Shown in pieces: positions 9,837-39,629 of a stretch of DNA of 64,000 nt. The DNA is taken from the NCBI GenBank assembly GCA_964596525.1, contig CAZQUL010000001.1, positions 1,276,312 to 1,340,311 on the forward strand, written 5' to 3'. Position 1 is the stretch's first letter, and the number at the start of each line of letters is the position of its first letter. A model generated the notes under the pieces. It saw nothing but the letters and a program-made list of their open reading frames with translations. It was not told the origin of the DNA and ran no database searches. The position numbers were made by a program, and so were the translations under genes. The stretch comes from an uncultured Gammaproteobacteria bacterium. Its GTDB lineage: Bacteria; Patescibacteriota; Patescibacteriia; Magasanikbacterales; GWA2-37-8.

Positions 9837-9857
9837 GAACAAAGCACCCCTAAAAAC

Positions 9858-10855: not shown

Positions 10856-10885
10856 GAAAAGGCCTTAGGAAGGCCTCTTTTCTCT
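10856..10885 (-). terminator. rho-independent terminator of the pyrH-like gene
   Basis: GAGAAAAGGCCTT-agg-AAGGCCTCTTTTCTC, with a T-rich tract on the minus strand. Confidence 0.55.
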
Positions 10886-10911
10886 TACCGGCTCTAGAAT
10901 AGAAAAATGAT

Positions 10912-15480: not shown

Positions 15481-16758
15481 ATGATGATAAGGAATGCCTG
15501 CCTGTCTCTATTTTTCGCACTCAGCTGCGCCTGCAGCCAGCCTAAGGAGAACACACCTGGTTTCGTTGATGCAGAAGCGCTCGTTAAAGATTCCGCCGTG
15601 CAAAAGGTGTTTCAAGAGCTCGACCACAGGTACGAGGACTTTATCTGCGATCTCGTACAGCTAACTGAGATTCCCGCCCCATCCCAGGGCGAAGCAGAGC
15701 GCGCAGCAGTGGTAAAAGCTCGATTTCAAGAGCTTGGCCTGTCTGCGGTTCGCATTGATAAAGCAGGCAATGTTATCGGCGAACGCGCGGGCAACGAAAC
15801 CGGGCCGAACCTACTCATCACCGCGCACCTCGACACGGTTTTTCCGGCCGGAACAGACGTGCGAGTACAAAAAAAGGGCACCATCTACAGCGCGCCGGGC
15901 ATCGGTGATAATGCACAGGGGCTCGCTGCGCTTATCGCTTTCGCACGGGCGCTTTATGCGCACCAGACGCCAACCAACGGGTCGATTATATTCGCAGCAA
16001 CCACCGGCGAAGAACAGGATCTACGCGGTATGCGCCATATGCTCGCAGACCGGGCAATGCGCACACGTATTCACGGCGTAATCGTGCTTGATTATAAAGA
16101 TGATTACACGGTGAATAACGTGGCTGTAGGCAAACGCTCATTTACCGTGACGTACCGCGGACCGGGCGGCCATGCCTTCGAATACGCCGGGAGCGTCAAT
16201 CCGACTTTTGCTCTGGCCTCGACGATTGCCATGCTCGGCCGGCTTAACGTAACGGATAACCCTAAAACCGCCATCAATGTGAGCAAACTCACGAGCAATC
16301 CCGGAGCGGGAACGATTCCGGAATATGCATCCATGGAAGTGAGCCTGCGCTCGGCATCGGAGCGACAGATTGATCAGCTCGAAGAACGCATGCGCAGCAT
16401 GGCGGCAGCCGGAGTTATGGCGGAAAATACAGTGCGTAGCCTAGCGCACGGAAAGATTTCGGTTGATATAACGCAGAACAGCTCATTTCCCGCCGGCATA
16501 ACGCCCGTAAACTCACCACTCGTCACACTCGCTCTATCGGTTACGAGCGCGCTCGGTCGACAGCCGGAACTTGGGGCGAGAAGCAGTGACGCGAATATCG
16601 CCATGCACTACAGCATTCCGGCGATCATGATCGGTGCCGGGCGCTCCGAAGGAGCTCACACGTTAAACGACACTATCAACGTAGATAAAGCTGCCGCGCT
16701 ACCCGGACAACAACGCCTCGCCGCGATCACGCTCGGATTCGTCGGTATCAAGAAGTAA
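15481..16758 (+). CDS. M20-family metallopeptidase (ArgE/DapE/PepT-like), secreted lipoprotein form
   Basis: 425 aa; GAGGAGG RBS; lipobox FFALSCAC; metal-binding blocks ITAHLDTV, GIGDNAQG, TTGEEQD. Confidence 0.75.
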   Translation: MMIRNACLSLFFALSCACSQPKENTPGFVDAEALVKDSAVQKVFQELDHRYEDFICDLVQLTEIPAPSQGEAERAAVVKARFQELGLSAVRIDKAGNVIGERAGNETGPNLLITAHLDTVFPAGTDVRVQKKGTIYSAPGIGDNAQGLAALIAFARALYAHQTPTNGSIIFAATTGEEQDLRGMRHMLADRAMRTRIHGVIVLDYKDDYTVNNVAVGKRSFTVTYRGPGGHAFEYAGSVNPTFALASTIAMLGRLNVTDNPKTAINVSKLTSNPGAGTIPEYASMEVSLRSASERQIDQLEERMRSMAAAGVMAENTVRSLAHGKISVDITQNSSFPAGITPVNSPLVTLALSVTSALGRQPELGARSSDANIAMHYSIPAIMIGAGRSEGAHTLNDTINVDKAAALPGQQRLAAITLGFVGIKK

Positions 16759-18647: not shown

Positions 18648-20397
18648 TACCGCCGAAAAAAACGCTCCAGCAGACCAAAAATCCGCGGCTATCAAAAAAT
18701 TCCTGCCCTTCCTCAAGCCGGAGCGGAAATTTCTAGCCCTTGCGTTTTTGGCAACGATTGCGAGTGCCGGGCTCAACCTGGCTTCGCCCGCGATCATGGG
18801 TCGCACCATCGACCGCTCCATCGCCGGGCGTGATTTCCATGGCGTGCTCGTCGCGGCCGGGATTCTGCTTATCGTGTATATACTTTCCCTCATCGCCGGA
18901 TATTTGCAGACGCGCATCATGGGCGGGGTGGGCCAGCGTACGCTCTATAATTTGCGCAACACCGTCTTCGATAAACTGCAGGAATTGCCAGTCGCATTCT
19001 TCAACCAGAACAAAGCCGGTGACCTCATCTCGCGCATCAACAACGACACGGAAAATTTGAATCAATTCTTCTCGCAGGCGCTCGTGCAGTTCGCGAGCAA
19101 TATCGTGCTCATCATCGGCGCGGCGATTTTCGTGATTTCGCTCAATCCTCGCCTCGGTGCGGCAGCACTCGCTCCAGCCGTACTCCTCCTTATTTTCAGC
19201 GCACTCGTCGCTCCGTATGTCCGCAAAAAGAATGCAGCGAGCCTCGCAAGCGTCGGACTTCTCAGCGCCGAGGTGCAGGAAAGTCTCGAAAACTTCAAAG
19301 TCATCGTCGCTTTCAACCGCCGCGATTACTTCCGCGAAAAATTCGCTAAAGCCAATAATACTAATTACGAAAAAGCCACCCGCGCCGGCATCGTTAATAC
19401 AGCGCTTTTGACGCCCGTGTACGGACTCATCTCGAGCGCGGCGCAGCTCGTCGTTTTAACCTACGGCATTTTCCTCATCATGAGCGGCTACGCGACGATC
19501 GGCATCCTCATCAGTTTCATCGGCTACGTGTCACGGTTTTACGATCCGCTCCGCCATCTCGCCATGCTTTACGCGCAGTTCCAGGTAGCGCTCGGCAGCT
19601 GGCAGCGCATCGCGGATATCCTTGAGATGAAAAACGACATGGAAAAACTCCTTGGCGAAGACGCCGGAAAAACCAAAGCCCCGGTACTCGAATTCAAGAA
19701 TGTCGGATTCGGCTATGAGAACGGCAAACAGGTCTTGAACGACATCAACTTCGCGCTTGAGGCAGGAAAAACGTATGCACTCGTTGGTCCGACCGGCGGC
19801 GGCAAAACCACGACCGCGTCCATCATGGCCCGGCTTTACGACCCGACGAGCGGAACCGTCTTTTTGCACGGCCGAGATATCCGCACGGTGGATGATACGG
19901 AGCGCTCACGGGCGATCGGATTCATATTGCAAGACGCATTTCTCTTTACCGGCACAGTGCGCGAGAATATCGTCTACGGTAACGCGGCATACGAAACCAT
20001 GACGAGTGAAGAACTTGCCAAGGTTATTGAAGAAGCCGGATTGACCGAACTTATGAAGCGTTTCAACGACGGTCTTGAAACGAAGGTGGAAAACGGCGGC
20101 GCGACTTTGAGCCTCGGCCAGCGCCAGCTCATCGCGTTCATCCGGGCAGTGCTGCGCAAGCCGGATATTCTCATTCTTGATGAAGCGACCGCAAACATCG
20201 ATACGGTGACCGAAGAACTCCTGCAGACCATTCTCGAAAAACTCCCGAAAATGACGACGCGCGTGGTTATCGCGCATCGCCTCAATACGATTGAAAGCGC
20301 GGACGAAATCTTCTTCGTCAACGCCGGGGTGATCACGCCGGCCGGTTCGTTCGAGCATGCGGTCGAGATGCTGATGAAAGGAAAAAAGACCAGCTAA
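18631..20397 (+). CDS. ABC exporter, fused permease-ATPase, subunit 2 (heterodimer partner, translationally coupled)
   Basis: 588 aa; GPTGGGKTT, LSLGQRQLIAFIRAV, ILILDEATANID; start overlaps the subunit 1 stop. Confidence 0.9.
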   Translation: MKYTLNTAEKNAPADQKSAAIKKFLPFLKPERKFLALAFLATIASAGLNLASPAIMGRTIDRSIAGRDFHGVLVAAGILLIVYILSLIAGYLQTRIMGGVGQRTLYNLRNTVFDKLQELPVAFFNQNKAGDLISRINNDTENLNQFFSQALVQFASNIVLIIGAAIFVISLNPRLGAAALAPAVLLLIFSALVAPYVRKKNAASLASVGLLSAEVQESLENFKVIVAFNRRDYFREKFAKANNTNYEKATRAGIVNTALLTPVYGLISSAAQLVVLTYGIFLIMSGYATIGILISFIGYVSRFYDPLRHLAMLYAQFQVALGSWQRIADILEMKNDMEKLLGEDAGKTKAPVLEFKNVGFGYENGKQVLNDINFALEAGKTYALVGPTGGGKTTTASIMARLYDPTSGTVFLHGRDIRTVDDTERSRAIGFILQDAFLFTGTVRENIVYGNAAYETMTSEELAKVIEEAGLTELMKRFNDGLETKVENGGATLSLGQRQLIAFIRAVLRKPDILILDEATANIDTVTEELLQTILEKLPKMTTRVVIAHRLNTIESADEIFFVNAGVITPAGSFEHAVEMLMKGKKTS

Positions 20398-20419
20398 TAA
20401 ATCCGATTATAAATGTAAG

Positions 20420-20448
20420 ACCCCGGCGCGATGAGCCGGGGTTTTGGT
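20420..20448 (+). terminator. rho-independent terminator
   Basis: GACCCCGGCGCG-atga-GCCGGGGTTTTGG. Confidence 0.6.
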
Positions 20449-21707
20449 TAGGGATTTTTACGAGTTAGCTCGAGAGGAAGGTTTTTTCGGGCGGCTTCGA
20501 AGCGAATCAGGAAGTCCGCACGTACCGTGGATCCAGGGGACCCCCGCAGAACTTCTCTGACGCGCTCGAGCGAATAATATATCGATTCCCTCTTACGGAG
20601 CGAAAAGTAATAACGAAGCTGATTTTCCGACCACCTGAACTCCACAGCAAGAAGGTATACAGCGACCGTCCGCGACCAGGACGACCACCTCATCAGCTTG
20701 CGCCCCTCATAAGCCCACTGCGCCTCTACTACCCTCTTGACTGCCAGGTACTGCGCGATTAGCTCTTTGTCTTTACTGAAAGCTAGGTTAGCCGGGATGG
20801 GCTCAGGGCGAGGTTTGATTTCCCCTGCTTCCGAAAGAAGCCGGAGGGCTTCCTTGAGGCGCGCGTAGACCATATGTGCGCTGAGCTTGAGAGTTGTGGC
20901 AAGCTTGGTACCGGTCAAAAAGCCAGGCGGCCTGTCTTTGGCAAAGCCGTATCGGAGCTCAAGGGCGCGGTAATACTCCGGTCGTGCTTCCGCCAACTTC
21001 GCAAGCCGTCCGGATTTTTTGGCCTTAAGGAGAAGCTCAAGAGTCGGAAGCAAACTCTTAAGATGCAGCCTTGGCCACGAGATCCCAGAGAGCAGCATAG
21101 GAGAACAGCCCCGCAAAGCAGCCAGCACTTGGCGCGGACGGGCATCGATTTTACCGTCATACCGCTTTGCCAGATCTTTGGCGAATTTTTGCGCACACCA
21201 GTTGACCGAAAGACCAGGTTTGAGATAACGAAGCAGGCCTTCGATTCTCCAGGTCAAACTAGACATGACGCTGATCCCATACTCTTGTTTAAGCTCTTCA
21301 CTAGAGCACCGCCGTTCGCCATGGACGCCGAGATAACAGCGGATTATCCTGATCCAGCGGCAACCTTTTTTGGCAAGATGATTAAGCTTTTTTATCTCAT
21401 CCGCACTGAGATCTTCGAGTATCTTTCGTTTTTGATCTAACGTTTTGCGGCGCAGGCGGATGATCGGCGGCTTACGGGTCTTGCCCGATTCGACCAGGCG
21501 CACTTTGGTCCGATGCAGCGCAGCGCTAACAGTAGGCAGAAGCTCTTCACCACCCGAAGAAAGCTCGAGTTTACGCAGATTGGGCGCGCGCTCCAGGATT
21601 GCACTAACGAGCTCCAACGTCAGCGGGAGCGAACAGAAGACGTACTCGGTTCGGAAATTGAGCTGTCCAACATCCTCTTTCTTGGTGACGATTTTTCTGA
21701 CCGACAC
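20448..21707 (-). CDS. hypothetical basic protein with several helix-turn-helix-like segments
   Basis: 419 aa, Arg/Lys/Leu-rich; HTH-like GTKLATTLKLSAHMVYARLKEA and SEELKQEYGISVMSSLTWRIEGL; no catalytic motif recognised; opposite-strand ORFs are shorter and non-protein-like. Confidence 0.35.
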   Translation of the reverse strand: MSVRKIVTKKEDVGQLNFRTEYVFCSLPLTLELVSAILERAPNLRKLELSSGGEELLPTVSAALHRTKVRLVESGKTRKPPIIRLRRKTLDQKRKILEDLSADEIKKLNHLAKKGCRWIRIIRCYLGVHGERRCSSEELKQEYGISVMSSLTWRIEGLLRYLKPGLSVNWCAQKFAKDLAKRYDGKIDARPRQVLAALRGCSPMLLSGISWPRLHLKSLLPTLELLLKAKKSGRLAKLAEARPEYYRALELRYGFAKDRPPGFLTGTKLATTLKLSAHMVYARLKEALRLLSEAGEIKPRPEPIPANLAFSKDKELIAQYLAVKRVVEAQWAYEGRKLMRWSSWSRTVAVYLLAVEFRWSENQLRYYFSLRKRESIYYSLERVREVLRGSPGSTVRADFLIRFEAARKNLPLELTRKNP

Positions 21708-21798
21708 GGTTTTCCTCCTCAGGCTTCGGAAATATTAAAGAACTGACGTGATCTAAACCGCCAAGGTATAGCATGAGCCGGAAAAAGTCAACTATTTT

Positions 21799-22464
21799 TC
21801 AAGGCCACAATCCCTGTTCTTTAAGGCTCAAAAAATTTTCGCTTGTGACGATGATATGATCTAATACTTCGATGCCGAGCACCTGACCTGCGATGACAAG
21901 ACGTTTCGTCACTTCAAGATCACTTTCGGATGGCACGGTATCCCCGCTTGGATGATTATGCGCCACAATAATTTGCGATGCGGTGTGCAAAATCGCTGGC
22001 TCGAACACTTCGCGTGGATGCACTAGGCTCGTTTCAAGGAGCCCGACGGAAATAGTCTCGCGCTTAATCTGCTGTAGACGCGGATCAAGGTAAAAAATAA
22101 TGAAATGTTCTTTTTTAAGCACCGCAATATCTTTGAGTTCGCGCGCCACATCCGCGGGTGACATAAGAAGCGCGGCTTTTTTATCTTTTAGGAGACGTTT
22201 GCCGAGCTCAAAGCAAGCGGTGATCTCGCATGCCTTGGCTTCGCCGAGACCGAAAACTTTAGATAAATCTTCGACTGTCGCATCGACCAAGCCTTTGGCA
22301 CTGAAACTGCGCAAAATCGATTCTGCAAGTTCGACGACGTTGAGATTCTTGGTGCCGGTACGCAAAAGGAGCGCCAGAAGTTCGCTGTTGGAAAGTTTAT
22401 CCGGACCGTACTTGAGCATTTTTTCGCGCGGGCGGTCGACAGCGGGGAGATCTTTAAGCTTCAT
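21799..22464 (-). CDS. radC: RadC-family JAB-domain protein (UPF0758)
   Basis: 221 aa; N-terminal KYGPDKLSNSELLALLLRTGTKNLNVVELA (HhH) and C-terminal JAMM motif ILHTASQIIVAHNHPSGDTVPSESDLEVTKRL. Confidence 0.85.
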   Translation of the reverse strand: MKLKDLPAVDRPREKMLKYGPDKLSNSELLALLLRTGTKNLNVVELAESILRSFSAKGLVDATVEDLSKVFGLGEAKACEITACFELGKRLLKDKKAALLMSPADVARELKDIAVLKKEHFIIFYLDPRLQQIKRETISVGLLETSLVHPREVFEPAILHTASQIIVAHNHPSGDTVPSESDLEVTKRLVIAGQVLGIEVLDHIIVTSENFLSLKEQGLWP

Positions 22465-22469
22465 ATGAA

Positions 22470-22886
22470 CTATTTTTTCTCTGGCTTATTGAAACGCAAA
22501 TACGCTAGTATCGGCAACCCGAAAATAAAGATTTCTGTTACCAATAAATCATATCCACTCTTTATCAACCAATCAGTGGTTGGATGGCTGGAAAAAAATT
22601 GTATACGCACAAATTCAGCAGAACCGGTGGAAGTGGCGGAAGGCGGAGTAGCACACCACACTCCTTGAACCGGACGAAGCGCATCGGTGAGCGGATATTT
22701 CGGCCGATAGTCGACCCTATACGCCAGGCCGTCAAATATCTTTCCTTGAGCTTCGCACACCTGCCTCGCGCGCGGCTCGAAAAAAATTTTATGCAGAGAG
22801 TAGGTAGCCACAAACGCGCATAACAAACCTACGATAAAGCACCCGAATAAGATGCGATTATCACGGTCTTTAAAATAACCCAGCAT
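22470..22886 (-). CDS. hypothetical membrane protein
   Basis: 138 aa; TM helices at both ends (ILFGCFIVGLLCAFVATYSL; LLVTEIFIFGLPILAYL). Confidence 0.4.
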   Translation of the reverse strand: MLGYFKDRDNRILFGCFIVGLLCAFVATYSLHKIFFEPRARQVCEAQGKIFDGLAYRVDYRPKYPLTDALRPVQGVWCATPPSATSTGSAEFVRIQFFSSHPTTDWLIKSGYDLLVTEIFIFGLPILAYLRFNKPEKK

Positions 22887-22896
22887 AAGAAAACGA

Positions 22897-23085
22897 TCAC
22901 TTCATCTCTTTGATGACTAGCTCGACAGACTCGAGATATTGTTTTAGATCCTGCGCAATCTTACTCCCCTCTTTATATTTCTTAATTCCCTCTTCAAGGT
23001 CGATACCGTCCTGTTCGAACCATTCGACGATCTTCTGGAGTTCGGCGTAGGATTTTTTGAAATTAAGCTCCTTTATTTTAGGCAT
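22897..23085 (-). CDS. xseB: exodeoxyribonuclease VII small subunit
   Basis: 62 aa from the internal ATG: MPKIKELNFKKSYAELQKIVEWFEQDGIDLEEGIKKYKEGSKIAQDLKQYLESVELVIKEMK; the 118-aa ORF upstream extension is non-native. Confidence 0.7.
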   Translation of the reverse strand: MPKIKELNFKKSYAELQKIVEWFEQDGIDLEEGIKKYKEGSKIAQDLKQYLESVELVIKEMK

Positions 23086-23144
23086 ATTTTTGACAGATAA
23101 TGGAGAAAAGTATACAGTGGCCCCATCGAAATCAGGAGGTAAAG

Positions 23145-23699
23145 ATGTATAGAACAGCCACACTTCCGGTTCTTTCGCTGCTCTACTGCAGCTCGCCGGC
23201 CAAACCATCACCGCACCCAGACGCCAAGATCTATCGGGAATTTTCGCAGGCAATCGCGGATGCCGAGAAAAAGTACGGCGTCATGGGCGAAGTGCTCATG
23301 GCGAACGTGTGGGTGGTTCAGGGAAAACCGTCGCACCCCGTTCGCATTGCTCATGACAGCCTCTTCGTTCGCCGCGGCATGCGCTTTGGCCTGTTCGGTT
23401 TGAATTACGATGAGATCATGGTGTGTGGGAGGTTCGAAATTGAAGAGTTCAGCGTGCGTGGACAAGTGCTGTGCGCAGCTCGATTGATCCGCGACCGCGC
23501 TGGATTCTCCCCTTCTACCTGGGCGGCGCTCCGCCTCTATAGCCGTAAGCTCCCACCCGAAGCAGTGCGTGCCTGGGGCGCGCAGCTCGCGGATTTGCGG
23601 CTGACGTGTCCGGAGTATCAACACAAAAGATACAACTGCCCGAACGCGCCGTTTCTACCCGGCTTTGTCGACGCGCCATTTCCTTCTCCCTCACGCTAA
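23145..23699 (+). CDS. hypothetical secreted protein
   Basis: AGGAGG 6 nt before the ATG; MYRTATLPVLSLLYCSSPAKPS signal-like N-terminus. Confidence 0.45.
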   Translation: MYRTATLPVLSLLYCSSPAKPSPHPDAKIYREFSQAIADAEKKYGVMGEVLMANVWVVQGKPSHPVRIAHDSLFVRRGMRFGLFGLNYDEIMVCGRFEIEEFSVRGQVLCAARLIRDRAGFSPSTWAALRLYSRKLPPEAVRAWGAQLADLRLTCPEYQHKRYNCPNAPFLPGFVDAPFPSPSR

Positions 23700-23755
23700 C
23701 ACCGATCGCCTCGCGAGGCAAGGTGTTTTTTTGTTAGTTTTTTCAAAATCCAGTA

Positions 23756-23784
23756 TTGACAGCCCCGTTCACGCTCCGTATACT
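23756..23784 (+). promoter_or_regulatory. sigma70-type promoter
   Basis: TTGACA - 17 nt - TATACT, about 30 nt upstream of an AAGGAGG RBS. Confidence 0.6.
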
Positions 23785-23811
23785 CGGGGAGTTATCCGCA
23801 AGGAGGGATAA

Positions 23812-24195
23812 ATGTTCAAAAACATACAAAAAGGACTGAGCATTCTCATCATCATTACCAGCCTTAGCAACTGTACGACGCCCGGGCACGTCGTGCCAAC
23901 AGCTTCGTCGCCAGCCAAAAACGATCCAATGCCCTTTTGCCAAGGCGACGGGCAAGAGATTCTCGCTCGTCCGAGCAGCACTGCTTATTTTCTCGCACTT
24001 ATCGGCTGCTTCATGCGCGAGCTCGAATGTCGCGCCGCTGAGACGTGCCCCACCCGTTTCGACCAACATCCAAAGGCCAAGTTAATCAGCGAAAAATGTC
24101 ACGAATCAGACCCGGCGGTAAAAGACCATATCGGCATACTTACCCACGACGAACGCACCTTCGCCACTGAGTGTCTAGGCCTGCCCCTGCCGTAA
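23812..24195 (+). CDS. small Cys-containing secreted/lipoprotein-like protein
   Basis: 127 aa; MFKNIQKGLSILIIITSLSNCTTPG signal peptide; 8 Cys. Confidence 0.5.
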   Translation: MFKNIQKGLSILIIITSLSNCTTPGHVVPTASSPAKNDPMPFCQGDGQEILARPSSTAYFLALIGCFMRELECRAAETCPTRFDQHPKAKLISEKCHESDPAVKDHIGILTHDERTFATECLGLPLP

Positions 24196-24237
24196 CTCGT
24201 ACACACCGGCAACCATCCGCACACCGAATATGTAGCA

Positions 24238-25491
24238 TCACCGGCGGGCGGTTTTTTTATTTTCAACAGTTTCGGTGCGCGCAGTGTACGAGCCGTCGTA
24301 TGTACGCACACGAATTACGTCACCGGGTTTAATTGCAGCCGCAGAACGGATTAGCGCACCCTCATCGGTAAAAGCCAGACTATATCCTTGCCGCAAAAGA
24401 CGCTCTGGATTGGCTTGAGCCATAAGCCGTTCGGCATAAGCGACGCGTTCTTGGTAGCGTTCATATAGAGACCGCAGGCGCTCAAATGTACTCTCGAAGC
24501 GCGCCACGAGACGCGCACAAGGATCAACCAAAACGAACGCAGCCGTAGAAAGCGCGTACTCAGCAGCACGAATACGCTCCCGCTGCAGAGCGACTCCTTG
24601 TTTGAGCGCGCTTATGATAAATTCATACTGATATTCAAGTTCACCGAGCACATCGCGATAGTCAGGCACGATACGCTCGGCCGCATTAGAGGGCGTCGAG
24701 CAACGAACGTCGGCCACATAGTCGGCAAGTGTGTCATCCCGCTCATGCCCGATGCCCGTAACAACCGGGATGCGGCTCGCGTAGATGGCACGCACCACCG
24801 CCTCGTCGTTGAACGCCGCCAGATCTTCGAGCGAACCGCCACCACGGATAAGAACGAGCGCATCGAGATGATCGGGGTATTTACTGAAATCATCGAATGC
24901 AGCGAGAATATCCCCTACAGCTTCAGCGCCCTGCACGTTCACATGGCGCATAACCAGCTCTACAGCACCCCAACGATTAGCCAGAATACGGCGGAAGTCG
25001 CCCCACGCCGCGCTATCGCGCGAAGCGATCACACCAATCCGTTCGGGAAGATCAGGCAGCGCACGCTTGCGTTCTAAAGCAAACAACCCTTCTTTTTCTA
25101 ATTTTTCTTTAAGAAGAAGGAAGGCTTTTTTAAGCGAGCCTTCCCCAACTAACTCGGCGCGCTGCACCGTAAAACTGAATTTGCCGGTTTTCTCGTAGAT
25201 TTTAGGATAGCCGAACACGCGAACTTTCATGCCGTCCGCGATGGGTTGGTGCAGCATGAAGACCGTAGAAAAACAGCCTAGCACCCCAGTTTCATCCTTC
25301 AAATCAAAAAAGACCCACTTGTTTTGGGAAACTTTATACTGTGACACTTCACCCTCAATGGCGTATTCACCCAGGATAAGGTCGTTGATCTGCGAGAGGA
25401 AAGAGGTAACCGAGAGTGCCGCGAGCATAATGAAAAGTAATGTGCGAGACAAACTTGCGCCGATATCATCGCGTATTTTTATCTGCAACAA
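24238..25491 (-). CDS. xseA: exodeoxyribonuclease VII large subunit
   Basis: 417 aa; N-terminal OB-fold (YAIEGEVSQYKVSQNKWVFFDLKDE), catalytic core (GVIASRDSAAWGDFRRI...LVLIRGGGSLEDLAAFNDE...PVVTGIGHERDDTLADYVADVRCSTP). Confidence 0.85.
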   Translation of the reverse strand: MLQIKIRDDIGASLSRTLLFIMLAALSVTSFLSQINDLILGEYAIEGEVSQYKVSQNKWVFFDLKDETGVLGCFSTVFMLHQPIADGMKVRVFGYPKIYEKTGKFSFTVQRAELVGEGSLKKAFLLLKEKLEKEGLFALERKRALPDLPERIGVIASRDSAAWGDFRRILANRWGAVELVMRHVNVQGAEAVGDILAAFDDFSKYPDHLDALVLIRGGGSLEDLAAFNDEAVVRAIYASRIPVVTGIGHERDDTLADYVADVRCSTPSNAAERIVPDYRDVLGELEYQYEFIISALKQGVALQRERIRAAEYALSTAAFVLVDPCARLVARFESTFERLRSLYERYQERVAYAERLMAQANPERLLRQGYSLAFTDEGALIRSAAAIKPGDVIRVRTYDGSYTARTETVENKKTARR

Positions 25492-25494
25492 CTT

Positions 25495-26097
25495 CTACCT
25501 AACCAACACACCAAATAACGCATCAATCACCGGCCGGATGATATCGAACAAGAAGAACACAAAAACGAAGAGTAAAATCATGCCGTAACGTTCGAGAGTG
25601 TCGCGAATAGCGTTTGCCGAATCGGGCAAAAGGGCAAAAAGTACCTTGGAACCATCGAGCGGCGGAATGGGCACCAAGTTGAACACCATAAGAAGGATAT
25701 TAGCGTACACAATCACCTCTAGAAACGGTCGCATGGCGAGTACCGGGAAAAGCCGGATGATAGCCGCTGCAGCGACTGCTAAAAGCAGGTTGGCGAGCGG
25801 ACCAGCTACACCCACAATAGCCGGGCCCCATTTCTGGTCGCGCAGATTGTAGGGGTTAAAGGGTACGGGTTTAGCATAAGCGAACATGAACCGGCCGCCG
25901 CTACTGATAAACAAAACTAACGGTAGAAGAATGGTGCCGATCCAGTCGATATGCGCCCGCGGATCGATGGTGAGACGCCCGGCGTAGCGCGCCGTCGGAT
26001 CCCCCAGCCGGTCCCCCATCCAGGCATGGGCGTATTCGTGGATAATACTCGACGGAATGATGATGATAAAGTAAAAAAGGAGGCCGATAAGGTCCAT
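25495..26097 (-). CDS. M50-family (site-2-protease-like) membrane zinc metalloprotease
   Basis: 200 aa; polytopic; HEYAHAW (HExxH) in TM1 and NLVPIPPLDGSKVL (LDG motif). Confidence 0.75.
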   Translation of the reverse strand: MDLIGLLFYFIIIIPSSIIHEYAHAWMGDRLGDPTARYAGRLTIDPRAHIDWIGTILLPLVLFISSGGRFMFAYAKPVPFNPYNLRDQKWGPAIVGVAGPLANLLLAVAAAAIIRLFPVLAMRPFLEVIVYANILLMVFNLVPIPPLDGSKVLFALLPDSANAIRDTLERYGMILLFVFVFFLFDIIRPVIDALFGVLVR

Positions 26098-26098
26098 A

Positions 26099-26127
26099 TT
26101 GACAGAAAAAACGATTTCGCGTATAGT
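26099..26127 (+). promoter_or_regulatory. sigma70-type promoter of rpmB
   Basis: TTGACA - 17 nt - TATAGT. Confidence 0.6.
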
Positions 26128-26166
26128 CTGTTTATCTTAACAACTATCTTCTAACTAAGCAACGTT

Positions 26167-26343
26167 ATGAGCCGCATGTGCATGCTCTGCGGGAAACAGG
26201 CTGTCCGCGCCAATTCGGTGAGCCACTCCAACCGCAAAACCCCCCGCCAGCAGAAGCCCAATCTGCAGTTTTTGACCATCGCCAACACGCGCGTCAAAGT
26301 CTGCTCTGGCTGCCGCCGTACTATCGCCCGCCAGACGGTCTAA
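26167..26343 (+). CDS. rpmB: 50S ribosomal protein L28
   Basis: 58 aa, not in the ORF track: MSRMCMLCGKQAVRANSVSHSNRKTPRQQKPNLQFLTIANTRVKVCSGCRRTIARQTV (C..CGK...N.VSHSNR.T.R...PNLQ pattern). Confidence 0.75.
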   Translation: MSRMCMLCGKQAVRANSVSHSNRKTPRQQKPNLQFLTIANTRVKVCSGCRRTIARQTV

Positions 26344-26569
26344 CTGTTTCAGCGAATATAAGCTAAAAAGCGCCTTACCTGGCGTTTTTTGGTTTATGTC
26401 TAACAAACGAGCCCTTTAAACCGCTTAAATAAGCATAGTGCATTATTATTTGACTTATCCCGAGATATTCTTGACAATATTGTATAACTATGTTTAACTT
26501 GTCATTGTTCGCTTGCTCTCTGCACAACACCCACAACGTTCGACGACTTTGACCTCGGAGGAAGCACCC

Positions 26570-27193
26570 ATGTCGACCCTGAAGAACACTGGCCTCGCCG
26601 CCTTCTCGCTGTTCACCCTGCTGACCGGCTGCGGCGCTCCGGACCTGAACCCCGGCTCGACGCCCGGGGGCCCCATCGGTCCCATCGCGAGCACGGACCC
26701 GCTGCGCGAGGCCGACATCCCCGGCCCCTATACGATCGATGTCTCGACGGCGACCGACACCTGCCGCGGCCTGAACGAGGCCGTGTCGATCCTCAACAAG
26801 TCGGGCCTCTGGGGCACCTTCCAGGAGCCCAAGCTCGCCTGCACGTTCCCGCTCGACACGCGGCTCCCGCAGCGCGAGTTCTGGCTGTCCATCAGCCAGC
26901 TCGACGAGACCCGGCGCAGCACGACCCTCGGCTGCGAGTTCATGGGCAGCGAGATCCTGTTCCGCAACACGTTCGCGGTCCGCATGATCAAGAGCAGCAA
27001 GGACGGGGACCGGACGTTCAGCCTGAACTTCCAGTACCTCGAGATGTTCACCGGCATTTCCGTCTCGAAGATCGGAAGCAACGAGGACATCATCTCCGTG
27101 CTCGAGGCGTCCCAGGCGACCCGGCCGCCGGTCAACCCGCAGAACTTCATGTTCTGCCGGCTCGATCTGACGCCCGCCCTCAGCAAGCTGTAG
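26570..27193 (+). CDS. second G+C-rich lipoprotein gene (hypothetical)
   Basis: Start at MSTLKNTGLAAFSLFTLLTGCGAPDL (lipobox LLTGC) with GGAGG 8 nt upstream; coding region much more G+C-rich than flanks; overlapping 185-aa antisense ORF judged artefactual. Confidence 0.6.
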   Translation: MSTLKNTGLAAFSLFTLLTGCGAPDLNPGSTPGGPIGPIASTDPLREADIPGPYTIDVSTATDTCRGLNEAVSILNKSGLWGTFQEPKLACTFPLDTRLPQREFWLSISQLDETRRSTTLGCEFMGSEILFRNTFAVRMIKSSKDGDRTFSLNFQYLEMFTGISVSKIGSNEDIISVLEASQATRPPVNPQNFMFCRLDLTPALSKL

Positions 27194-27242
27194 TCGCCAC
27201 CTGGCCTGCAGCGGCTGAGAGGCTTCGCACTGTGCATTCCCA

Positions 27243-27270
27243 CCCCCGTCCCTGACGGGGGTTTATATTT
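27243..27270 (+). terminator. rho-independent terminator
   Basis: CCCCCGTC-cct-GACGGGGGTTTATATTT. Confidence 0.6.
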
Positions 27271-27486
27271 ATAATTGAAAAACACCTCGAAGGGACGAGA
27301 TGTTTTTCAGCGCAGTAGTTATAAGCACGGCATGTGTCCCGTGAAGGTAGGTGGTGAGCCGCACAGCACGCCCACGGGCGGGCTAAATATAGGCAAACCT
27401 AGGGGACAACATAGAACACTTTTGCACGCACCCATAACTGACTGACAAAATAACTATACCACAACCTCAAAATCCCTTCTAGCGGA

Positions 27487-27515
27487 CCATACAACAAGAC
27501 CTCGGCAGAACCGAG
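27487..27515. terminator. bidirectional terminator (10-bp perfect stem)
   Basis: AAGACCTCGG-cagaa-CCGAGGTCTTGTTGTT. Confidence 0.55.
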
Positions 27516-27575
27516 GTCTTGTTGTTAGTATGCAGTTTTCTACTCCCTACGAGCTACGCCCTACTACCTGGATTA

Positions 27576-28154
27576 TTAATCAACAAACCGCTGATAGCTG
27601 AAAACGACATCGCGGCCGCCGAACCAGTGTTTGATTTCATGCTGCGCTTCTTCGGCGGTTTCGGAGGCATGGATAAGGTTCATGACCGCGCGCTTTTCGG
27701 TGTTGGCAACGGCCGGGGAATCGGCTGAGTAATCACCGCGGATTGTACCCATCTCGGCCTGATACGGCATAGTCGGACCGACGATCTTGCGCACCATATC
27801 AACAGCATGAACACCCTCTACGACCATACGGACAAGCGGCGCGGACACCATGTAATCAACAAGCCACTGGCGGACCATTTTGCCGATTTCTAAATCATCT
27901 TTAGTACCGAGCGCCTGAATGGGGTCGATGTTGTATTTTTCGTAGGTGCCGAGCGTTTTTCCGCCCACGCGCTTGATCCAGGCTTCATCTTTCGGATAAT
28001 GATTGTCGATTTGTTCTTTGGTCGGCTGGAACATTTCAAGCGCTACGATTTTAAGATCGCGCTGCTCGAAGCGGCGGATGATTTCACCGATCAAACCTTT
28101 TTTGACACCATCTGGTTTGATCATGACGTATGTCTGTTCTTTCTTGAAGTTCAT
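27576..28154 (-). CDS. ndk: nucleoside diphosphate kinase (long form with insertion)
   Basis: 192 aa; TYVMIKPDGVKKGLIGEIIRRFEQRDLKIVA...; catalytic His region ...RGDYS....NLIHAS. Confidence 0.85.
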   Translation of the reverse strand: MNFKKEQTYVMIKPDGVKKGLIGEIIRRFEQRDLKIVALEMFQPTKEQIDNHYPKDEAWIKRVGGKTLGTYEKYNIDPIQALGTKDDLEIGKMVRQWLVDYMVSAPLVRMVVEGVHAVDMVRKIVGPTMPYQAEMGTIRGDYSADSPAVANTEKRAVMNLIHASETAEEAQHEIKHWFGGRDVVFSYQRFVD

Positions 28155-28211
28155 AGTATTAACGCTGAGTAAATAAGTTGGGCTTAAGTATAACGTTTTT
28201 GAGAAGCGCTG

Positions 28212-28568
28212 TCAATAAAAAACGGCGAAACGAAAGGTAACGTGGCGTGTCGCTCGGTTGAATTCCACCAAAAGTCCAGCCAAAATAAAGCTTCCTTCGG
28301 CAATCCCCCGCTTAAAACAATAACTTTTGACGGTCTTTTCAAGCTTATGTTTTTTAGCGGGCGTAATAGACGAATACGTAGCCATGTCCCCGCTTTGGCG
28401 GGTTTTAACTTCTACGAAATACCAATCCTCATCGCGGCGCGCAATGATGTCGATTTCTCCTGTAGTGGCAAAGAAATTACGCTCAACCACGGTAAAGCCT
28501 TGGCGAGCCAAAAAAGCGGCAGCTTGGTCTTCGCCCCAGGCGCCCACTTTTTTACGCACGGTCGACAT
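28212..28568 (-). CDS. yraN: YraN-family (UPF0102) predicted endonuclease
   Basis: Start at the internal MSTVRKKVGAWGEDQAAAFLARQGFTVVERNFFATTGEIDIIARRDEDWYFVEVKTR...KKHKLEKT. Confidence 0.75.
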   Translation of the reverse strand: MSTVRKKVGAWGEDQAAAFLARQGFTVVERNFFATTGEIDIIARRDEDWYFVEVKTRQSGDMATYSSITPAKKHKLEKTVKSYCFKRGIAEGSFILAGLLVEFNRATRHVTFRFAVFY

Positions 28569-28591
28569 GCGAGACGTTAGACGAACAAAAC

Positions 28592-28996
28592 CTAGCGGCG
28601 CAGGTATTTCTCGCGGCGTTCGCGCAACGCTTGTTCGGAGCGGATTTCCGGTACACGCAAGGTGAAGTAGCGGTACCATTCATAAGCACGCCACGCCGTA
28701 AGACCAAGGATGACGAGTGCCCAGAGCCGCCATGAGAAAAACGGAATTTGATGCTGGCGCGCAAAAGTGACCAGAAGAAGCGTTACCCCAAACCAGGCGC
28801 TGATGCGCATCGCTCGCAACATAAGGCGTTTAACCACGGAATCTACCGAAGAGCGGCGACTCAAGACAAACAACACCACCGAGAGAATAAGAGCGAGCAG
28901 TGGTATGCCATACCACACGATACGCGCCACACCAAGTGCCGCATCCGGAGTTGAAAACCAGTAAGAAAGGGAAAACAGATTGCCAATGCTATACAT
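28592..28996 (-). CDS. hypothetical membrane protein (4 TM)
   Basis: 134 aa; hydrophobic segments; basic C-terminus. Confidence 0.4.
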   Translation of the reverse strand: MYSIGNLFSLSYWFSTPDAALGVARIVWYGIPLLALILSVVLFVLSRRSSVDSVVKRLMLRAMRISAWFGVTLLLVTFARQHQIPFFSWRLWALVILGLTAWRAYEWYRYFTLRVPEIRSEQALRERREKYLRR

Positions 28997-29008
28997 ACAA
29001 CAAATACA

Positions 29009-29557
29009 TTAAGTTTTTCTGAGCAGAACACCGTAATGGAAATCACTGAACGTCATTTCATCAAGCAGTTCAAAACCGCTGCGCTCTGATTTTACGCGCA
29101 GTGCCTCGCGCGGCAAAAGACGGGCCGGAAAATTGGCGTTTGGGCCGATCTGGCGGGCGTAATCTACAATCAGCACCATGCCGCGCGGCTTGAGGAGGCG
29201 AGCCGTTTCTTCGAGCACGCGGTCATGCGCGGTAAGAGCACTCATAACATTGTGCAGCAAACAGCGGTCCAGCGAATTTTCGGGAATAGCTGTTTTGCCC
29301 ACGGTTTCGATATCCGACCAAACGGTTTTGATATTGCTATGACCATGCGCACGGACAAGGCCGCTCAGGTGTTCGAGCACCTCAGGGACGACGTCGACCG
29401 CATACACGGTTCCTTCGTGCCCAACTTCGCGCGCAAGGGCAAACGTAAGCTGCCCAGAGCGTCCACAGCCCAAATCCGCGACATGCATGCCGCTCTCGAC
29501 ACCTGCTTTGAGCAGCACGTCTTCGGGACGTGCCAAAACATTAGAAGCAAGGAGCAT
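29009..29557 (-). CDS. class I SAM-dependent methyltransferase
   Basis: 182 aa; motif I VADLGCGRSG and a post-I acidic residue (YAVDV). Confidence 0.7.
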   Translation of the reverse strand: MLLASNVLARPEDVLLKAGVESGMHVADLGCGRSGQLTFALAREVGHEGTVYAVDVVPEVLEHLSGLVRAHGHSNIKTVWSDIETVGKTAIPENSLDRCLLHNVMSALTAHDRVLEETARLLKPRGMVLIVDYARQIGPNANFPARLLPREALRVKSERSGFELLDEMTFSDFHYGVLLRKT

Positions 29558-29563
29558 AAAAAA

Positions 29564-29809
29564 TTACCGGATAAGGACTTTCCCGACAGTACCCATGAGA
29601 AAGCCGCCGAAAAGCCCGGTGATAAGAAGAAAACCGATGATGATAACAGCGATGCCAATGAGCTTATACATGAGGCGACTCCCACCATTGAAGCCTAAAT
29701 GTTCTTCGGCCCAAGCAATACTACCGAAATTCTCGAGAAACCATTCGCTTTTAATGACCAAAAGGGTTCCGAGCCCAGACAAAAGAAGGCCCACGAGGAT
29801 TTTAAGCAT
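29564..29809 (-). CDS. small membrane protein (2 TM)
   Basis: 81 aa; MLKILVGLLLSGLGTLLVI... and ...IGIAVIIIGFLLITGLFGGFLMG. Confidence 0.4.
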   Translation of the reverse strand: MLKILVGLLLSGLGTLLVIKSEWFLENFGSIAWAEEHLGFNGGSRLMYKLIGIAVIIIGFLLITGLFGGFLMGTVGKVLIR

Positions 29810-29904
29810 AACGAAAAGGCGAAAAAACAGAGTGATTTGAGTAGAGTACTAAATTCTAGGGGTGGGCGTCAACGGGGAAGGCGAAATATTTCAACTCAAT
29901 TTTT

Positions 29905-29945
29905 TAAAATAAACACCAACAACATCTCTGCTGTTGGTGTTTATT
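29905..29945 (-). terminator. rho-independent terminator (11-bp perfect stem)
   Basis: AAACACCAACA-acatctctgc-TGTTGGTGTTTATT. Confidence 0.55.
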
Positions 29946-30620
29946 CTACTTCTTCTCCCCTTTCCACTCTGTCGTATACCCCGGATTCTCGCTCGGGCGA
30001 AGCTTGTTCGGATATTCGATATCCGTCTTTACATCGTGCGAGAGCTTCTTGAAGAACTTAAATACGTCGTAGGGATTCGCGATGTTGGCAAGCGTGTGTG
30101 GTGTGGCGGTAAAATTACCGCGCCGATCGTGTTCGCCGACACCTTGGGCGAAGAACGCGATACTGCCGGACCCGCCGCCGATGGTTTTGTCCCAAAACCC
30201 GACCTGCACCTCTGTACTCGCAATCTGATCAAAATCAACATAGCTGAAATCACGGCCGATAATACCGCTTTGGATGATGATGCGCTTACCGGTGATGGCG
30301 TAGTAGAGATTTTTATAGCCGAGAATTTTGAGGAGTGGAATGCCGAACAGCAAGAAGAGACCGATGAGTACGAACGGCAGCAAGAAAAGATTAACTGAGG
30401 CCGTCACCATACCTTCGCCCGCGACGTTCAAGAACAATCCAGCCGATAAGAACGGCGACAAAAACAAAAACCACACGATGCCAAAGAGAAATGAAGGGAG
30501 CGAACCGGTGAGTACGTAGGGCCATAATGCCGGTTTTCCTTCCCAGAGAACCTGTTCGTTAGGGTCGAGGATGCGGTCGATTTCGCGCATAGAGAAAAAA
30601 TTAAAGTCTCTTAAACGCAT
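29946..30620 (-). CDS. membrane protein with bacterial PH (bPH_2/DUF304-like) domain
   Basis: Start set at MRLRDFNFFSMREIDRILDPNEQVLWEGKP...; the longer ORF start at 30707 lies inside the tRNA gene. Two TM helices then a PH-like domain (YAITGKRIIIQSGIIGRDFSYVDFDQI). Confidence 0.5.
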   Translation of the reverse strand: MRLRDFNFFSMREIDRILDPNEQVLWEGKPALWPYVLTGSLPSFLFGIVWFLFLSPFLSAGLFLNVAGEGMVTASVNLFLLPFVLIGLFLLFGIPLLKILGYKNLYYAITGKRIIIQSGIIGRDFSYVDFDQIASTEVQVGFWDKTIGGGSGSIAFFAQGVGEHDRRGNFTATPHTLANIANPYDVFKFFKKLSHDVKTDIEYPNKLRPSENPGYTTEWKGEKK

Positions 30621-30651
30621 ACATCGGTTGTCTTGAAAGATCAACCGATGT
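30621..30651 (-). other. 10-bp perfect hairpin between tRNA-Leu and the downstream start codon
   Basis: ACATCGGTTG-tcttgaaagat-CAACCGATGT. Confidence 0.5.
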
Positions 30652-30660
30652 ATGGATATG

Positions 30661-30744
30661 TGCCCAGGAGAGGATTCGAACCTCCATTCCCTTACGAGAG
30701 CTACCACCTCAAGGTAGTGCGTCTACCAATTTCGCCACCTGGGC
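30661..30744 (-). tRNA. tRNA-Leu (anticodon GAG), CCA not encoded
   Basis: Minus strand GCCCAGGTGGCGAAATTGGTAGACGC...CTTGAGGTGGTAG...GGTTCGAATCCTCTCCTGGGCA; type II long variable arm; anticodon loop cTTGAGgt. Confidence 0.85.
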
Positions 30745-39527: not shown

Positions 39528-39565
39528 TAAAAAAGACCCCTTCCGCTCAAAAGCGGTAAAGGGTC
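39528..39565 (-). terminator. rho-independent terminator of the third high-GC lipoprotein gene
   Basis: Nested hairpin CCCTTCCGCT-caaa-AGCGGTAAAGGG followed on the minus strand by TCTTTTTT. Confidence 0.55.
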
Positions 39566-39629
39566 CGGTGTGCAGACTCCCCAGTCTGCACGGACTACGC
39601 GTCACGCACGGGGCCGGTGCTGCGGGTTG

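Follow-up and report, generated by a model that had tools for sequence, protein, structure and literature searches.

A very GC-rich orphan gene for a predicted lipoprotein between rpmB and ndk in a Magasanikbacteria-like genome

Introduction

For the most part, the Patescibacteria (CPR) are episymbionts that have never been cultured. Their hosts are unknown, and it is presumably through surface proteins that they attach. In bacteria generally, recently acquired genes and orphans are usually AT-richer than the genome that carries them. A gene for a predicted surface lipoprotein in a Magasanikbacteria-like (Patescibacteria) genome breaks this rule: like two others in the 64-kb stretch of DNA analysed here (the window), it is extremely GC-rich and orphan, and yet it sits on native-looking expression signals. 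How did such a gene come to lie between housekeeping genes? The answer matters in either of two ways. Surface-lipoprotein genes written in a ~70%-GC dialect could be the molecular trace of a host or of a regular source of DNA and, if so, offer a route to predicting the partners of an uncultured lineage; enrichment for GC in situ, if that is what took place, would be a sign of some gene-specific process, mutational or selective, that is as yet unknown.

Results

A single-gene transcription unit

The coding sequence at 26570..27193 (+ strand; 207 aa, GC3 0.96, TAG stop) is a real, monocistronic transcription unit. Its parts would be an AT-rich sigma70-type promoter, a leader of ~63 nt carrying GGAGG, the 207-codon ORF and an intrinsic terminator. 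The putative promoter, TTGACA-17-TTAACT (26471..26499, + strand, -35 box at 26471-26476), was recognized by eye from its hexamers; the promoter scanner gave only an overlapping candidate, TTGACT-17-GACAAT, at 26450-26478. It belongs to an AT-rich stretch (0.34 GC at 26344-26499), in agreement with the local AT-rich promoter region pointed out in an earlier, sequence-only reading of this DNA. The -35 box is contained in an 18-nt motif, CCGAGATATTCTTGACAA (26460..26477, + strand), which has only two matches in the window, the second being in the promoter of island 1, one of the two other GC-rich lipoprotein genes (10672-10689, - strand); 0.08 matches are expected by chance, and none of 100 shuffles reached two. 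CTTGACAA is found also upstream of the third such gene, island 3, and of a native lipoprotein ORF, 452-1225. The Shine-Dalgarno sequence, GGAGG (26557..26561, + strand), is 8 nt ahead of the ATG, in the context GGAGGAAGCACCC followed directly by ATG. Promoter and ribosome-binding modules alike are native-looking and shared with other lipoprotein genes (island 1, ORF 452-1225). At the other end stands an intrinsic terminator, ACCCCCGTC-CCT-GACGGGGGT plus T-rich tail (27242..27272, + strand), which marks the right boundary of the GC-rich segment; the terminator had been seen before, with a stem of 8 bp, but its stem-loop (27242-27262) has nine pairs, seven of them G-C, and a loop of 3.

The first 20 codons (26570-26629, + strand) encode a signal peptide, identified by regular expression and by eye, whose N-terminus, MSTLK(+)NTG-LAAFSLFTLL, has a positively charged (Lys) n-region followed by a hydrophobic core. 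It leads to the lipobox L18-T19-G20-C21 (Cys21 codon at 26630-26632, + strand), which falls within the pattern [LVI][ASTVI][GAS]C, with the Cys inside the first ~35 residues, used to recognize lipoprotein precursors. The LTGC lipobox is therefore as previously read, but the cysteines number five (positions 21, 65, 91, 122 and 196), not six. The product is predicted to be a lipid-modified, surface-located prolipoprotein. It would leave the cell via Sec, Lgt would attach diacylglycerol to Cys21 and signal peptidase II would cut before this residue; the ORFs scanned in the 64-kb window, out of a genome of 1.34 Mb, include neither enzyme. The mature protein, of ~187 aa, would be anchored at the outer face of the cell membrane through a Pro/Gly-rich linker of ~30 residues, and the four Cys of its globular part could form two disulfides. 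The AlphaFold2 model obtained with single-sequence input has a mean pLDDT of 32, too low for use. Our most plausible guess at function is a role at the surface of an episymbiotic Patescibacterium, for example in adhesion or contact with a partner cell.

The opposite strand carries an ORF of 185 aa (26728..27285, - strand) that we regard, as did the sequence-only reading, as an artefact of GC-rich third positions. That this frame, or a non-coding RNA, should be the functional product rather than the sense ORF is extremely improbable. The antisense frame is indeed open, and its GC3 is high (0.91), but it starts at a GTG within the terminator of the neighbouring RNA, lacks a Shine-Dalgarno sequence and runs across the terminator of the lipoprotein gene; its GC1 (0.46) is lower than its GC2 (0.51) and its translation is rich in Arg and Ser, as is typical of reverse frames. 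The sense strand has its ATG, GGAGG at -9 to -13, signal peptide, lipobox, GC1 above GC2 and terminator, and a protein identical to its product is annotated from the sense ATG in NCBI and Logan records. A scan against Rfam returned no hits in favour of a non-coding RNA.

A GC-rich segment with the outline of a transcript

The gene was singled out by its high G+C content, and the measurements bear this out: 0.662 overall (GC1/GC2/GC3 = 0.53/0.49/0.96) in a window of 0.524. Across 46 native genes of the window, GC3 is 0.588 +/- 0.068 and reaches 0.81 at most, which places the gene at z=5.5. A maximal-segment scan of GC returned it, as 26591-27261, as the second of three outstanding segments in the window, these three islands scoring 72, 48 and 45, and the next segment 15. 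The bias reaches beyond codons, since the non-coding 3'UTRs of the islands are also GC-rich (0.67, 0.73 and 0.71, against a mean of 0.46 for intergenic DNA of the window), that of the gene under study (27194..27241, + strand) being 0.67. The GC-rich segment is in fact transcript-shaped: it sets in near the predicted start site, the leader being 0.54-0.57 GC against 0.34 further upstream, and it ends at the terminator stem. In composition the transcribed part matches, roughly, a genome of ~70% GC or more. The unit is thus composite, since its AT-rich promoter (0.34 GC, with native-like modules) is joined to a transcript that, to judge by its GC3 of 0.96, would have ameliorated hardly at all.

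Could a native gene have reached such values through translational selection, as a very highly expressed major lipoprotein, for instance? The adjoining rpmB has a GC3 of 0.81, the highest among the native genes, in many bacteria the optimal two-fold codons are the C-ending ones (TTC, AAC, ATC, GAC), and the tRNA-Leu(GAG) of the window fits the preference for CTC. The codon usage of the gene nevertheless differs significantly from that of the resident genes, with the AAG/GAG and CTG/GCG preferences reversed: the island codons are AAG (100%), GAG (95%), CTG (34%) and GCG (38%), whereas rplJ and rplL (GC3 0.61 and 0.56), like rpmB, favour AAA, GAA and GCT and avoid CTG and GCG. In the island, A- and T-ending codons are shunned indiscriminately and G-ending codons that are rare natively are common, and the enrichment includes the non-coding 3'UTR. 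Codon bias from high expression was rejected on account of these opposite choices, and translational selection appears to us very unlikely.

A more substantial alternative is that this is a native, fast-evolving surface lipoprotein gene whose whole transcript has been enriched for GC in situ, either by selection on the mRNA (stability, avoidance of an AU-specific RNase) or by an AT->GC bias in mutation that is linked to transcription or targeted. The untranscribed promoter would then remain AT-rich, and fast evolution would explain missing homologs. The transcript-like outline of the segment favours this alternative, as does amino-acid composition, which does not set the protein apart from native ones: GARP and FYMINK are 0.26 and 0.23, against 0.275 and 0.248 for native proteins and 0.35 and 0.15 for a 67%-GC actinobacterial control, a Nocardioides plasmid, so that the island proteins are nearer to the native ones. 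As an argument against a high-GC donor this is weak, because 4 of the 31 control genes match the island-like composition and because secreted lipoproteins of high-GC bacteria can be likewise atypical, rich in Lys, Asn and Thr. Against enrichment in situ, we know of no gene-specific mechanism of this kind in bacteria, and selection fixing ~96% of synonymous sites is implausible in slow growers with small genomes. Other native lipoprotein genes of the window (452-1225, 12338-13300, 15481-16758 and 23812-24195), moreover, are without GC3 bias, as are the highly expressed rplJ and rplL.

Three islands

The other two islands are likewise GC-rich orphan lipoprotein ORFs, at 9946-10449 (island 1) and 39630-40226 (island 3). 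Their proteins are unrelated to the one under study (BLASTP E=0.19 and 0.86), as had been stated. All three genes are precisely intergenic, with GC3 values of 0.962-0.965. They all end in TAG, as do 10 of 39 native genes, all have CCC directly before the ATG (1 of 33 native genes), and all have Gly at +2, after the lipobox Cys (none of 4 native lipoproteins). So close an agreement in GC3 fits a saturated process and hence enrichment in situ, but the stop codon, the Gly and the CCC are not predicted by a process that drives composition.

Relatives contain sporadic, mutually unrelated, Pfam-less small GC3-rich ORFs in variable slots, several of them for lipoproteins; eight of nine are orphans without Pfam domains. 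Their sporadic occurrence in such slots is consistent with recurrent uptake; that they, like all three island genes, are orphan and Pfam-less can also be counted in favour of enrichment in situ.

The insertion site in relatives

Around ndk and rpmB, gene order is the same in about 15 relatives. The upstream neighbour, correctly named from the outset, is rpmB (ribosomal protein L28; 26167..26343, + strand; PF00830, Ribosomal_L28, E=1.4e-12), a native gene whose position is kept in relatives. Its terminator hairpin, AAAAAGCGCC-ttacct-GGCGTTTTTT (26365..26392, + strand), was read from the sequence, being missing from the terminator scanner's list; equivalents follow rpmB in relatives, and it delimits the insert on the left. 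To the right, and convergent, is the native ndk (27576..28154, - strand; PF00334, E=7.6e-38), with Ndk 58-84% identical across 80 related loci. Framing the interval as rpmB-ndk overlooked a conserved, structured small RNA of ~137 nt 3' of ndk (27308..27444, - strand), which separates the insert from ndk. The covariance model hits it with 101.7 bits, and 17 of its 21 pairs show compensatory changes; it is not in Rfam 15, scans of the region and related loci having returned only terminator-driven noise. This RNA is native context, outside the insert; common near ndk in many Patescibacteria, and covarying, it may be the region's more robustly new object. Its own terminator hairpin, TGAAAAACATCTCG-tccctt-CGAGGTGTTTTTCA (27276..27309, - strand; inverted repeat I4), is native, has equivalents in relatives and abuts the insert on the right.

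The interval between rpmB and the small RNA, when it contains no gene, measures 42-90 nt in five relatives (L004, L002, L060, L013 and L009) and 214-228 nt in two; in the window it is 965 nt. The two convergent terminators that directly flank the insert are almost contiguous in relatives, which upholds the description of a precise one-gene insertion. Comparison with orthologous intervals, proposed with that description as the test of an ancient native gene, spoke for that description: it found a homolog in none of the ~15 syntenic ndk/rpmB intervals, the nearest relatives being distant (Ndk <=84%, M50 <=72% identical). This absence from every orthologous interval examined is a further point against enrichment in situ. 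tblastn against 160 related loci found only the window's own copy (L001, a Logan contig of the same stretch), and a metagenome scan for closer relatives with the neighbouring M50 protease gave none above 72% identity.

In four relatives (L003, L022, L027 and L064) the slot is filled by a small, membrane-anchored thioredoxin-like (CPHC) protein. Replacement of this gene at the slot was considered and rejected, the window containing no remnant of it. Nor was there a mobility signature (integrase, transposase or tRNA target) in the ORFs scanned within the window, and a search for flanking repeats or target-site duplications at the three islands yielded nothing beyond short, imperfect matches of the kind that chance could produce. 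The sole repeat flanking the gene, GGTTTATGTCTA / GGTTTATATTTA, has 10 of its 12 nt in agreement and may be accidental.

An abrupt compositional shift together with an absence of homologs might also betray an assembly chimera, or read-through from a contaminating high-GC organism. This reading is rejected because an independent k-mer assembly (Logan) of run SRR11567520 includes a short-read contig of 11,708 bp identical to window positions 19017-30724 and spanning both junctions; this contig is reported from 2 samples. The segment contains, besides, a complete and correctly oriented promoter, RBS, ORF and terminator, and there are three such islands, each precisely intergenic. We see next to no likelihood of a chimera.

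Homology searches

The gene is an orphan. A word-index search of 5.8 billion clusters returned nothing beyond the query itself; exhaustive phmmer against 1.84 billion representative proteins, scans of metagenome and viral contigs, and tblastn against plasmid and phage collections found no homolog; and comparison with Pfam, NCBIfam, PHROGs and PDB sequences gave no match. Searches with islands 1 and 3 were likewise empty. With no homologs in these collections, neither a donor nor phylogenetic nesting in another clade emerged, and one would not expect three orphans out of three island genes if they had come recently from a high-GC phylum that has been sampled. In the literature on Magasanikbacteria genomes and on CPR gene transfer involving lipoproteins, nothing relevant was found.

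Discussion

Origin of the gene

We lean, if only somewhat, towards horizontal acquisition of the gene from a single, very GC-rich, unsampled source, because its ~70% GC composition is shared with at least two other lipoprotein genes, along with idiosyncratic features. A foreign origin we infer from composition alone, and by the same token the three islands would have a donor in common. A unit of ~870 bp (about 26400-27270) would have been inserted in this lineage between the terminators of rpmB and of the small RNA; its source might be a monoderm, Actinomycetota-like organism or the mobile elements of one, and the gene would now be under promoter signals of the recipient's own type. What was first presented as a single-gene insertion has therefore held up as an aberrant but real gene absent from relatives, while foreignness itself is a compositional argument with enrichment in situ as its competitor. 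That competitor stays in play because the promoter and RBS modules look native and are common to other lipoprotein genes; we consider it possible, though improbable on balance.

We would hold out a slimmer chance for a process beyond ordinary gene transfer and as yet undescribed, which would have produced a set of at least three lipoprotein cassettes within 64 kb. Each cassette would combine a native-type, partly shared promoter/RBS module with a transcript whose free positions are saturated with G and C, and its protein would be native-like and without homologs. Conceivable candidates are AT->GC hypermutation confined to transcripts, by which surface lipoproteins would be diversified, or the capture, by way of RNA, of transcripts made in a host cell of very high GC. 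As unrelated small GC3-rich, Pfam-less ORFs recur in variable slots of other Patescibacteria, such cassettes may be common to the group as a whole.

Comparison with known systems

On the preferred reading, acquisition from a GC-rich source, the closest parallel is with the 'morons' of prophages. Like a moron, the gene is a lone ORF of deviant composition that has a promoter and a terminator to itself, occupies intergenic space flanked by conserved genes and is absent from orthologous intervals; unlike one, it is outside any prophage, with no mobility gene or attachment repeat nearby, and it is GC-richer than the genome, only its promoter part being AT-rich and of native composition.

The product recalls the lipoproteins of high-GC monoderms, of the mycobacterial LpqH type, in its Sec-type signal peptide, L-[AST]-[GA]-C lipobox with Gly at +2, Pro/Gly/Thr/Ser-rich tether, small Cys-containing globular domain and GC3 above 0.9. 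The likeness is one of grammar only and no more than a lead; in sequence the protein resembles none of the known lipoprotein families.

In the Vlp/Vsp-type sets of Mollicutes, conserved 5' expression modules precede divergent mature regions; here too, promoter/-35 and RBS modules are common to several small, mutually unrelated lipoprotein genes of a single reduced genome. These genes differ in having no repeats, clustered locus, poly-A or invertible switch, in their unconserved signal peptides, and in being scattered among housekeeping intergenic slots.

The thioredoxin-like protein of the four relatives, finally, occupies the same slot in the same orientation, and is likewise a small protein of the envelope, anchored in the membrane at its N-terminus. 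It is unlike the lipoprotein in its native composition, its length of ~120 aa, its CxxC motif and its conservation in four lineages, and the two are without similarity.

Composition and reading frame

The orphan prolipoprotein gene at 26570-27193(+), second of the window's three GC-rich islands, has 207 codons and a GC content of 0.662 (0.53, 0.49 and 0.96 at codon positions 1, 2 and 3), the whole window standing at 0.524. Third-position GC (GC3) in the 46 ORFs accepted as native is 0.588 +/- 0.068 and peaks at 0.81 in rpmB; the gene thus lies 5.5 SD out. A maximal-segment scan of the window (GC threshold >0.60) ranked its segment, 26591-27261, second with a score of 48, between 39561-40194 (72) and 9897-10436 (45); the best segment after these scores 15. 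The compositional contrast claimed in the sequence-only reading is thus real and exceptional.

The protein begins MSTLKNTGLAAFSLFTLLTGCG, which reads as a Sec-type signal peptide with a terminal LTGC lipobox, Cys at position 21. The lipobox stands as first proposed; the cysteines number five (21, 65, 91, 122 and 196), not six. AlphaFold2 run without an alignment gave a pLDDT of 32, too low to be informative. An antisense ORF of 185 aa (26728-27285(-)) is to be expected, since the third positions of the sense gene are G/C. It had been set aside as artefactual, and rightly: its GC1 is below its GC2, it begins at a GTG within the neighbouring terminator and crosses the gene's own terminator, and it is the sense ATG that public gene calls adopt.

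The region upstream, 26344-26499, is at 0.34 GC and carries a putative promoter, TTGACA-17-TTAACT; its -35/spacer region includes a 10-bp palindrome, ACAATATTGT. GGAGG lies 8 nt upstream of the ATG. A GC-rich 3'UTR of 48 nt leads to a terminator at 27242-27262, a 9-bp hairpin (7 G-C) with a T-rich tail. The AT-rich promoter region and the terminator were thus correctly described, apart from a stem given as 8 bp. As read from these signals, the transcript would start at ~26506 and end at 27262, and ribosomes starting at the ATG (26570) would make a prolipoprotein for Sec export, cleaved before Cys21 and lipidated on it. The mature protein of ~187 aa would be tethered to the surface by a proline/glycine-rich linker, and its remaining four cysteines may pair as two disulfides. 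Our best guess is a cell-surface role, for instance in contacting a partner cell or the environment.

An authentic locus and an orphan protein

The gene is preceded by rpmB (26167-26343(+)) and, further upstream, by an M50 protease gene and xseA. On its downstream side it has ndk (27576-28154(-)), together with genes for a UPF0102 nuclease-like protein and a methyltransferase. Other genes of the window are housekeeping ones (mreB, rplJ/rplL, pyrH, radC, Mur ligase, dnaB, argS, ABC/MacB transporters), with no integrase or transposase in the 64 kb, and the best matches of Ndk, at 58-84% identity, are in Patescibacteria metagenome-assembled genomes mostly labelled Magasanikbacteria. The exact protein is on record twice, in the NCBI contig and in a Logan assembly. 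The Logan contig (run SRR11567520, 11,708 bp) matches window 19017-30724 at every base, which excludes an assembly chimera.

No relative of the protein was found by word-index search of 5.8 billion clusters or exhaustive phmmer search of 1.84 billion representatives, nor was there anything in JGI metagenome contigs, IMG/VR, or plasmid and phage collections, or any match in Pfam, NCBIfam, PHROGs or PDB. Where a compositional contrast and a source for it had both been looked for, the contrast was found, but no homolog or donor in any collection searched.

Insertion between convergent terminators

The gene order methyltransferase - hypothetical - UPF0102 - ndk, convergent with rpmB - M50 - xseA, is kept in ~15 relatives. 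Searched by tblastn, none of the 160 related loci, orthologous rpmB-ndk intervals included, carries the gene. The ndk-rpmB distance is 84-310 bp in ten relatives, 440-506 bp in two, 609-814 bp in four and 1233 bp in the window. The four (loci L003, L022, L027 and L064) have the slot downstream of rpmB occupied by a conserved ~120-aa membrane-anchored thioredoxin-like protein with a CPHC motif and native composition (interval ~10570-11400 in each); no remnant of this gene was found in the window.

Reading the intervals of relatives also disclosed a conserved RNA of ~137 nt directly downstream of ndk on the same strand, in most relatives with its own predicted TTGACA-17-TATAAT promoter and terminator. 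A covariance model of 14 copies scores 101.7 bits in the window, at 27308-27444(-) (terminator 27276-27309(-); -10 box TATAGT, 27458-27453(-)), and also matches 34 of 99 other loci, hence 35 of 100 sources, always downstream of ndk, in genomes labelled Magasanikbacteria, Komeilibacteria, Parcubacteria/Paceibacterota and Zambryskibacteria. Its three nested helices show compensatory changes in 17 of 21 base pairs, and 96% of cells in the alignment are paired, versus 39-51% in slid-partner controls. Rfam 15 holds no match. In L022 the RNA is inverted.

From the rpmB stop to the 3' end of this RNA there are 42-90 nt in five relatives (L004, L002, L060, L013, L009), 214-228 nt in L018 and L019, ~610 nt in loci with the thioredoxin-like gene and 965 nt in the window. 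In the native architecture the terminators of rpmB and the RNA face each other; the position of the RNA and the gap sizes therefore place the insert (~26400-27270, ~870 bp) exactly between two convergent terminators, and the proposal of a precise single-gene insertion is upheld. With M50 identity no higher than 72%, even the nearest available relatives are too distant for the event to be dated.

An imperfect 12-nt direct repeat, GGTTTATGTCTA / GGTTTATATTTA (10/12), lies at the insert edges, 26391-26402 and 27260-27271, each copy directly following the stem of a terminator. The first island is similarly flanked by a terminator tail present in duplicate, AAGAACAAAGCACCCC / AAAAACAAAGCACCCC (9835-9867). 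These edge repeats could be chance or an insertion footprint.

Three islands and their counterparts in relatives

The other two islands are also lipoprotein ORFs with the GC3 of the rpmB-ndk gene: 0.964 for island 1 (9946-10449(-), lipobox VTGC, between pyrH and the L10 leader/rplJ) and 0.965 for island 3 (39630-40226(-), lipobox VGAC). Pairwise protein comparison found no similarity among the three, in agreement with the earlier statement that the protein is unrelated to the other two, and a search for homologs of islands 1 and 3 found none: both are orphans. The protein collection has no exact match to island 1, perhaps because its gene was called in another frame or from another start.

The three nevertheless have features in common that are mostly missing from native genes. 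All end in TAG (native genes, 10/39), have CCC directly 5' of the ATG (1/33) and Gly directly following the lipobox Cys (native lipoproteins, 0/4); their non-coding 3'UTRs are at 0.67, 0.73 and 0.71 GC, against 0.46 for all intergenic DNA. An 18-mer spanning the -35 box, CCGAGATATnCTTGACAA, occurs in the window only at the promoters of the rpmB-ndk gene (26460-26477(+)) and island 1 (10672-10689(-)), two matches where 0.08 is expected by chance, and ~45 nt around it can be aligned. The extended -35, CTTGACAA, recurs upstream of island 3 and of ORF 452-1225(+), a lipoprotein of native composition (lipobox AVGC, no Pfam match) whose ribosome-binding context resembles that of the rpmB-ndk gene. 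GC3 in this ORF climbs from ~0.58 to 0.80 in the final third; the gene may belong to the same class, as an older member that has ameliorated.

The -35/spacer region of island 1 has TTGACA-agac-TGTCAA, a candidate operator, and a tandem promoter-like module (CTTGACAAg..cgt.aAAGTATGGTA.A.T; 26 nt, 85% identity) lies upstream at 10654-10679 and 10761-10786 on the minus strand, the copies 107 nt apart with a hairpin in between. The leader of ~190 nt contains a 14-bp stem. Just downstream of the island 1 insert comes the L10 leader (9642-9817(-)), itself upstream of rplJ; this leader scores 44.0 bits, exactly the Rfam gathering threshold, and was missed by the whole-window gathering scan.

Scanning 1.78 Mb of related loci for small ORFs whose GC3 exceeds the background of their own genome by 0.30 or more gave about ten, with an excess of 0.30-0.55. 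They include lipoproteins at L010 12209-12733 (0.82 vs 0.30), L060 16895-17461 (0.75 vs 0.34) and L095 9353-9685 (0.72 vs 0.36), a protein with a signal peptide at L024 3896-4360 (0.82 vs 0.37), and ORFs at L020 19212-19796, L040 12909-13529, L064 15939-16250, L128 11683-12240 and L019 15262-15915, the last containing a cold-shock domain. Unrelated to one another and to the window genes, and devoid of Pfam domains in 8 of 9 cases, several are lipoproteins or secreted proteins, and several sit in the pyrH-rplJ slot. This slot, which holds island 1 in the window, is also expanded in L019, L022, L064, L095 and L113, and in all of these except L113 the resident ORF has GC3 0.30-0.55 above background. 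Variable intergenic slots adjoining ribosomal-protein genes recurrently carry GC-rich orphan envelope genes in these genomes; the window, with three in 64 kb, has ~8x the density of relatives and a more extreme bias. The gene at rpmB-ndk is a compositionally foreign, single-gene orphan lipoprotein islet: the kind is known, the member new.

Origin of the high GC

The islands use AAG (100%), GAG (95%), CTG (34%) and GCG (38%), and avoid A- and T-ending codons indiscriminately. Translational selection is rejected: rplJ/rplL, with GC3 of 0.61/0.56, favour AAA, GAA and GCT, and CTG is absent from both. Since the non-coding 3'UTRs are also ~70% GC, codon choice alone does not account for the composition, which is a property of the segment as DNA or as transcript.

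The standard explanation, horizontal acquisition from a genome of ~70% GC or more, with a single source for the three genes, is the one we somewhat favour; the idiosyncrasies shared by the islands point to one source. Against simple transfer, all three genes are without any homolog, no mobility signature was found around the islands in the repeats and gene content of the window, and the promoter part of the insert is AT-rich and native-like, making the unit compositionally composite. The main rival, transcript-wide GC enrichment in situ of native fast-evolving lipoprotein genes, accounts for the orphan status, for expression signals of native type and for the transcript-shaped boundaries of the GC-rich segment, but no mechanism for it is known, and it leaves unexplained that highly expressed genes and the other native lipoprotein genes (GC3 0.59-0.67 in the latter) were spared. 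A further point against simple transfer is the native-like amino-acid composition of the island proteins: GARP/FYMINK fractions are 0.26/0.23 for the rpmB-ndk gene and 0.275/0.248 for native proteins, whereas a control, a Nocardioides plasmid of 67% GC, gives 0.35/0.15. This point counts for little in our view, since 4 of 31 control genes resemble the islands and an atypical composition is known for secreted lipoproteins from high-GC bacteria. That the unexplained twist of the islands reflects an undescribed process rather than ordinary transfer seems to us improbable.

The overall observation is confirmed with small corrections, the insertion is supported, and foreign origin of the gene is likely rather than proven. 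The islands' lipobox grammar, L/V-T/G-G/A-C-G, together with the Pro/Gly-rich tether, appears reminiscent of the lipoproteins of high-GC monoderms.
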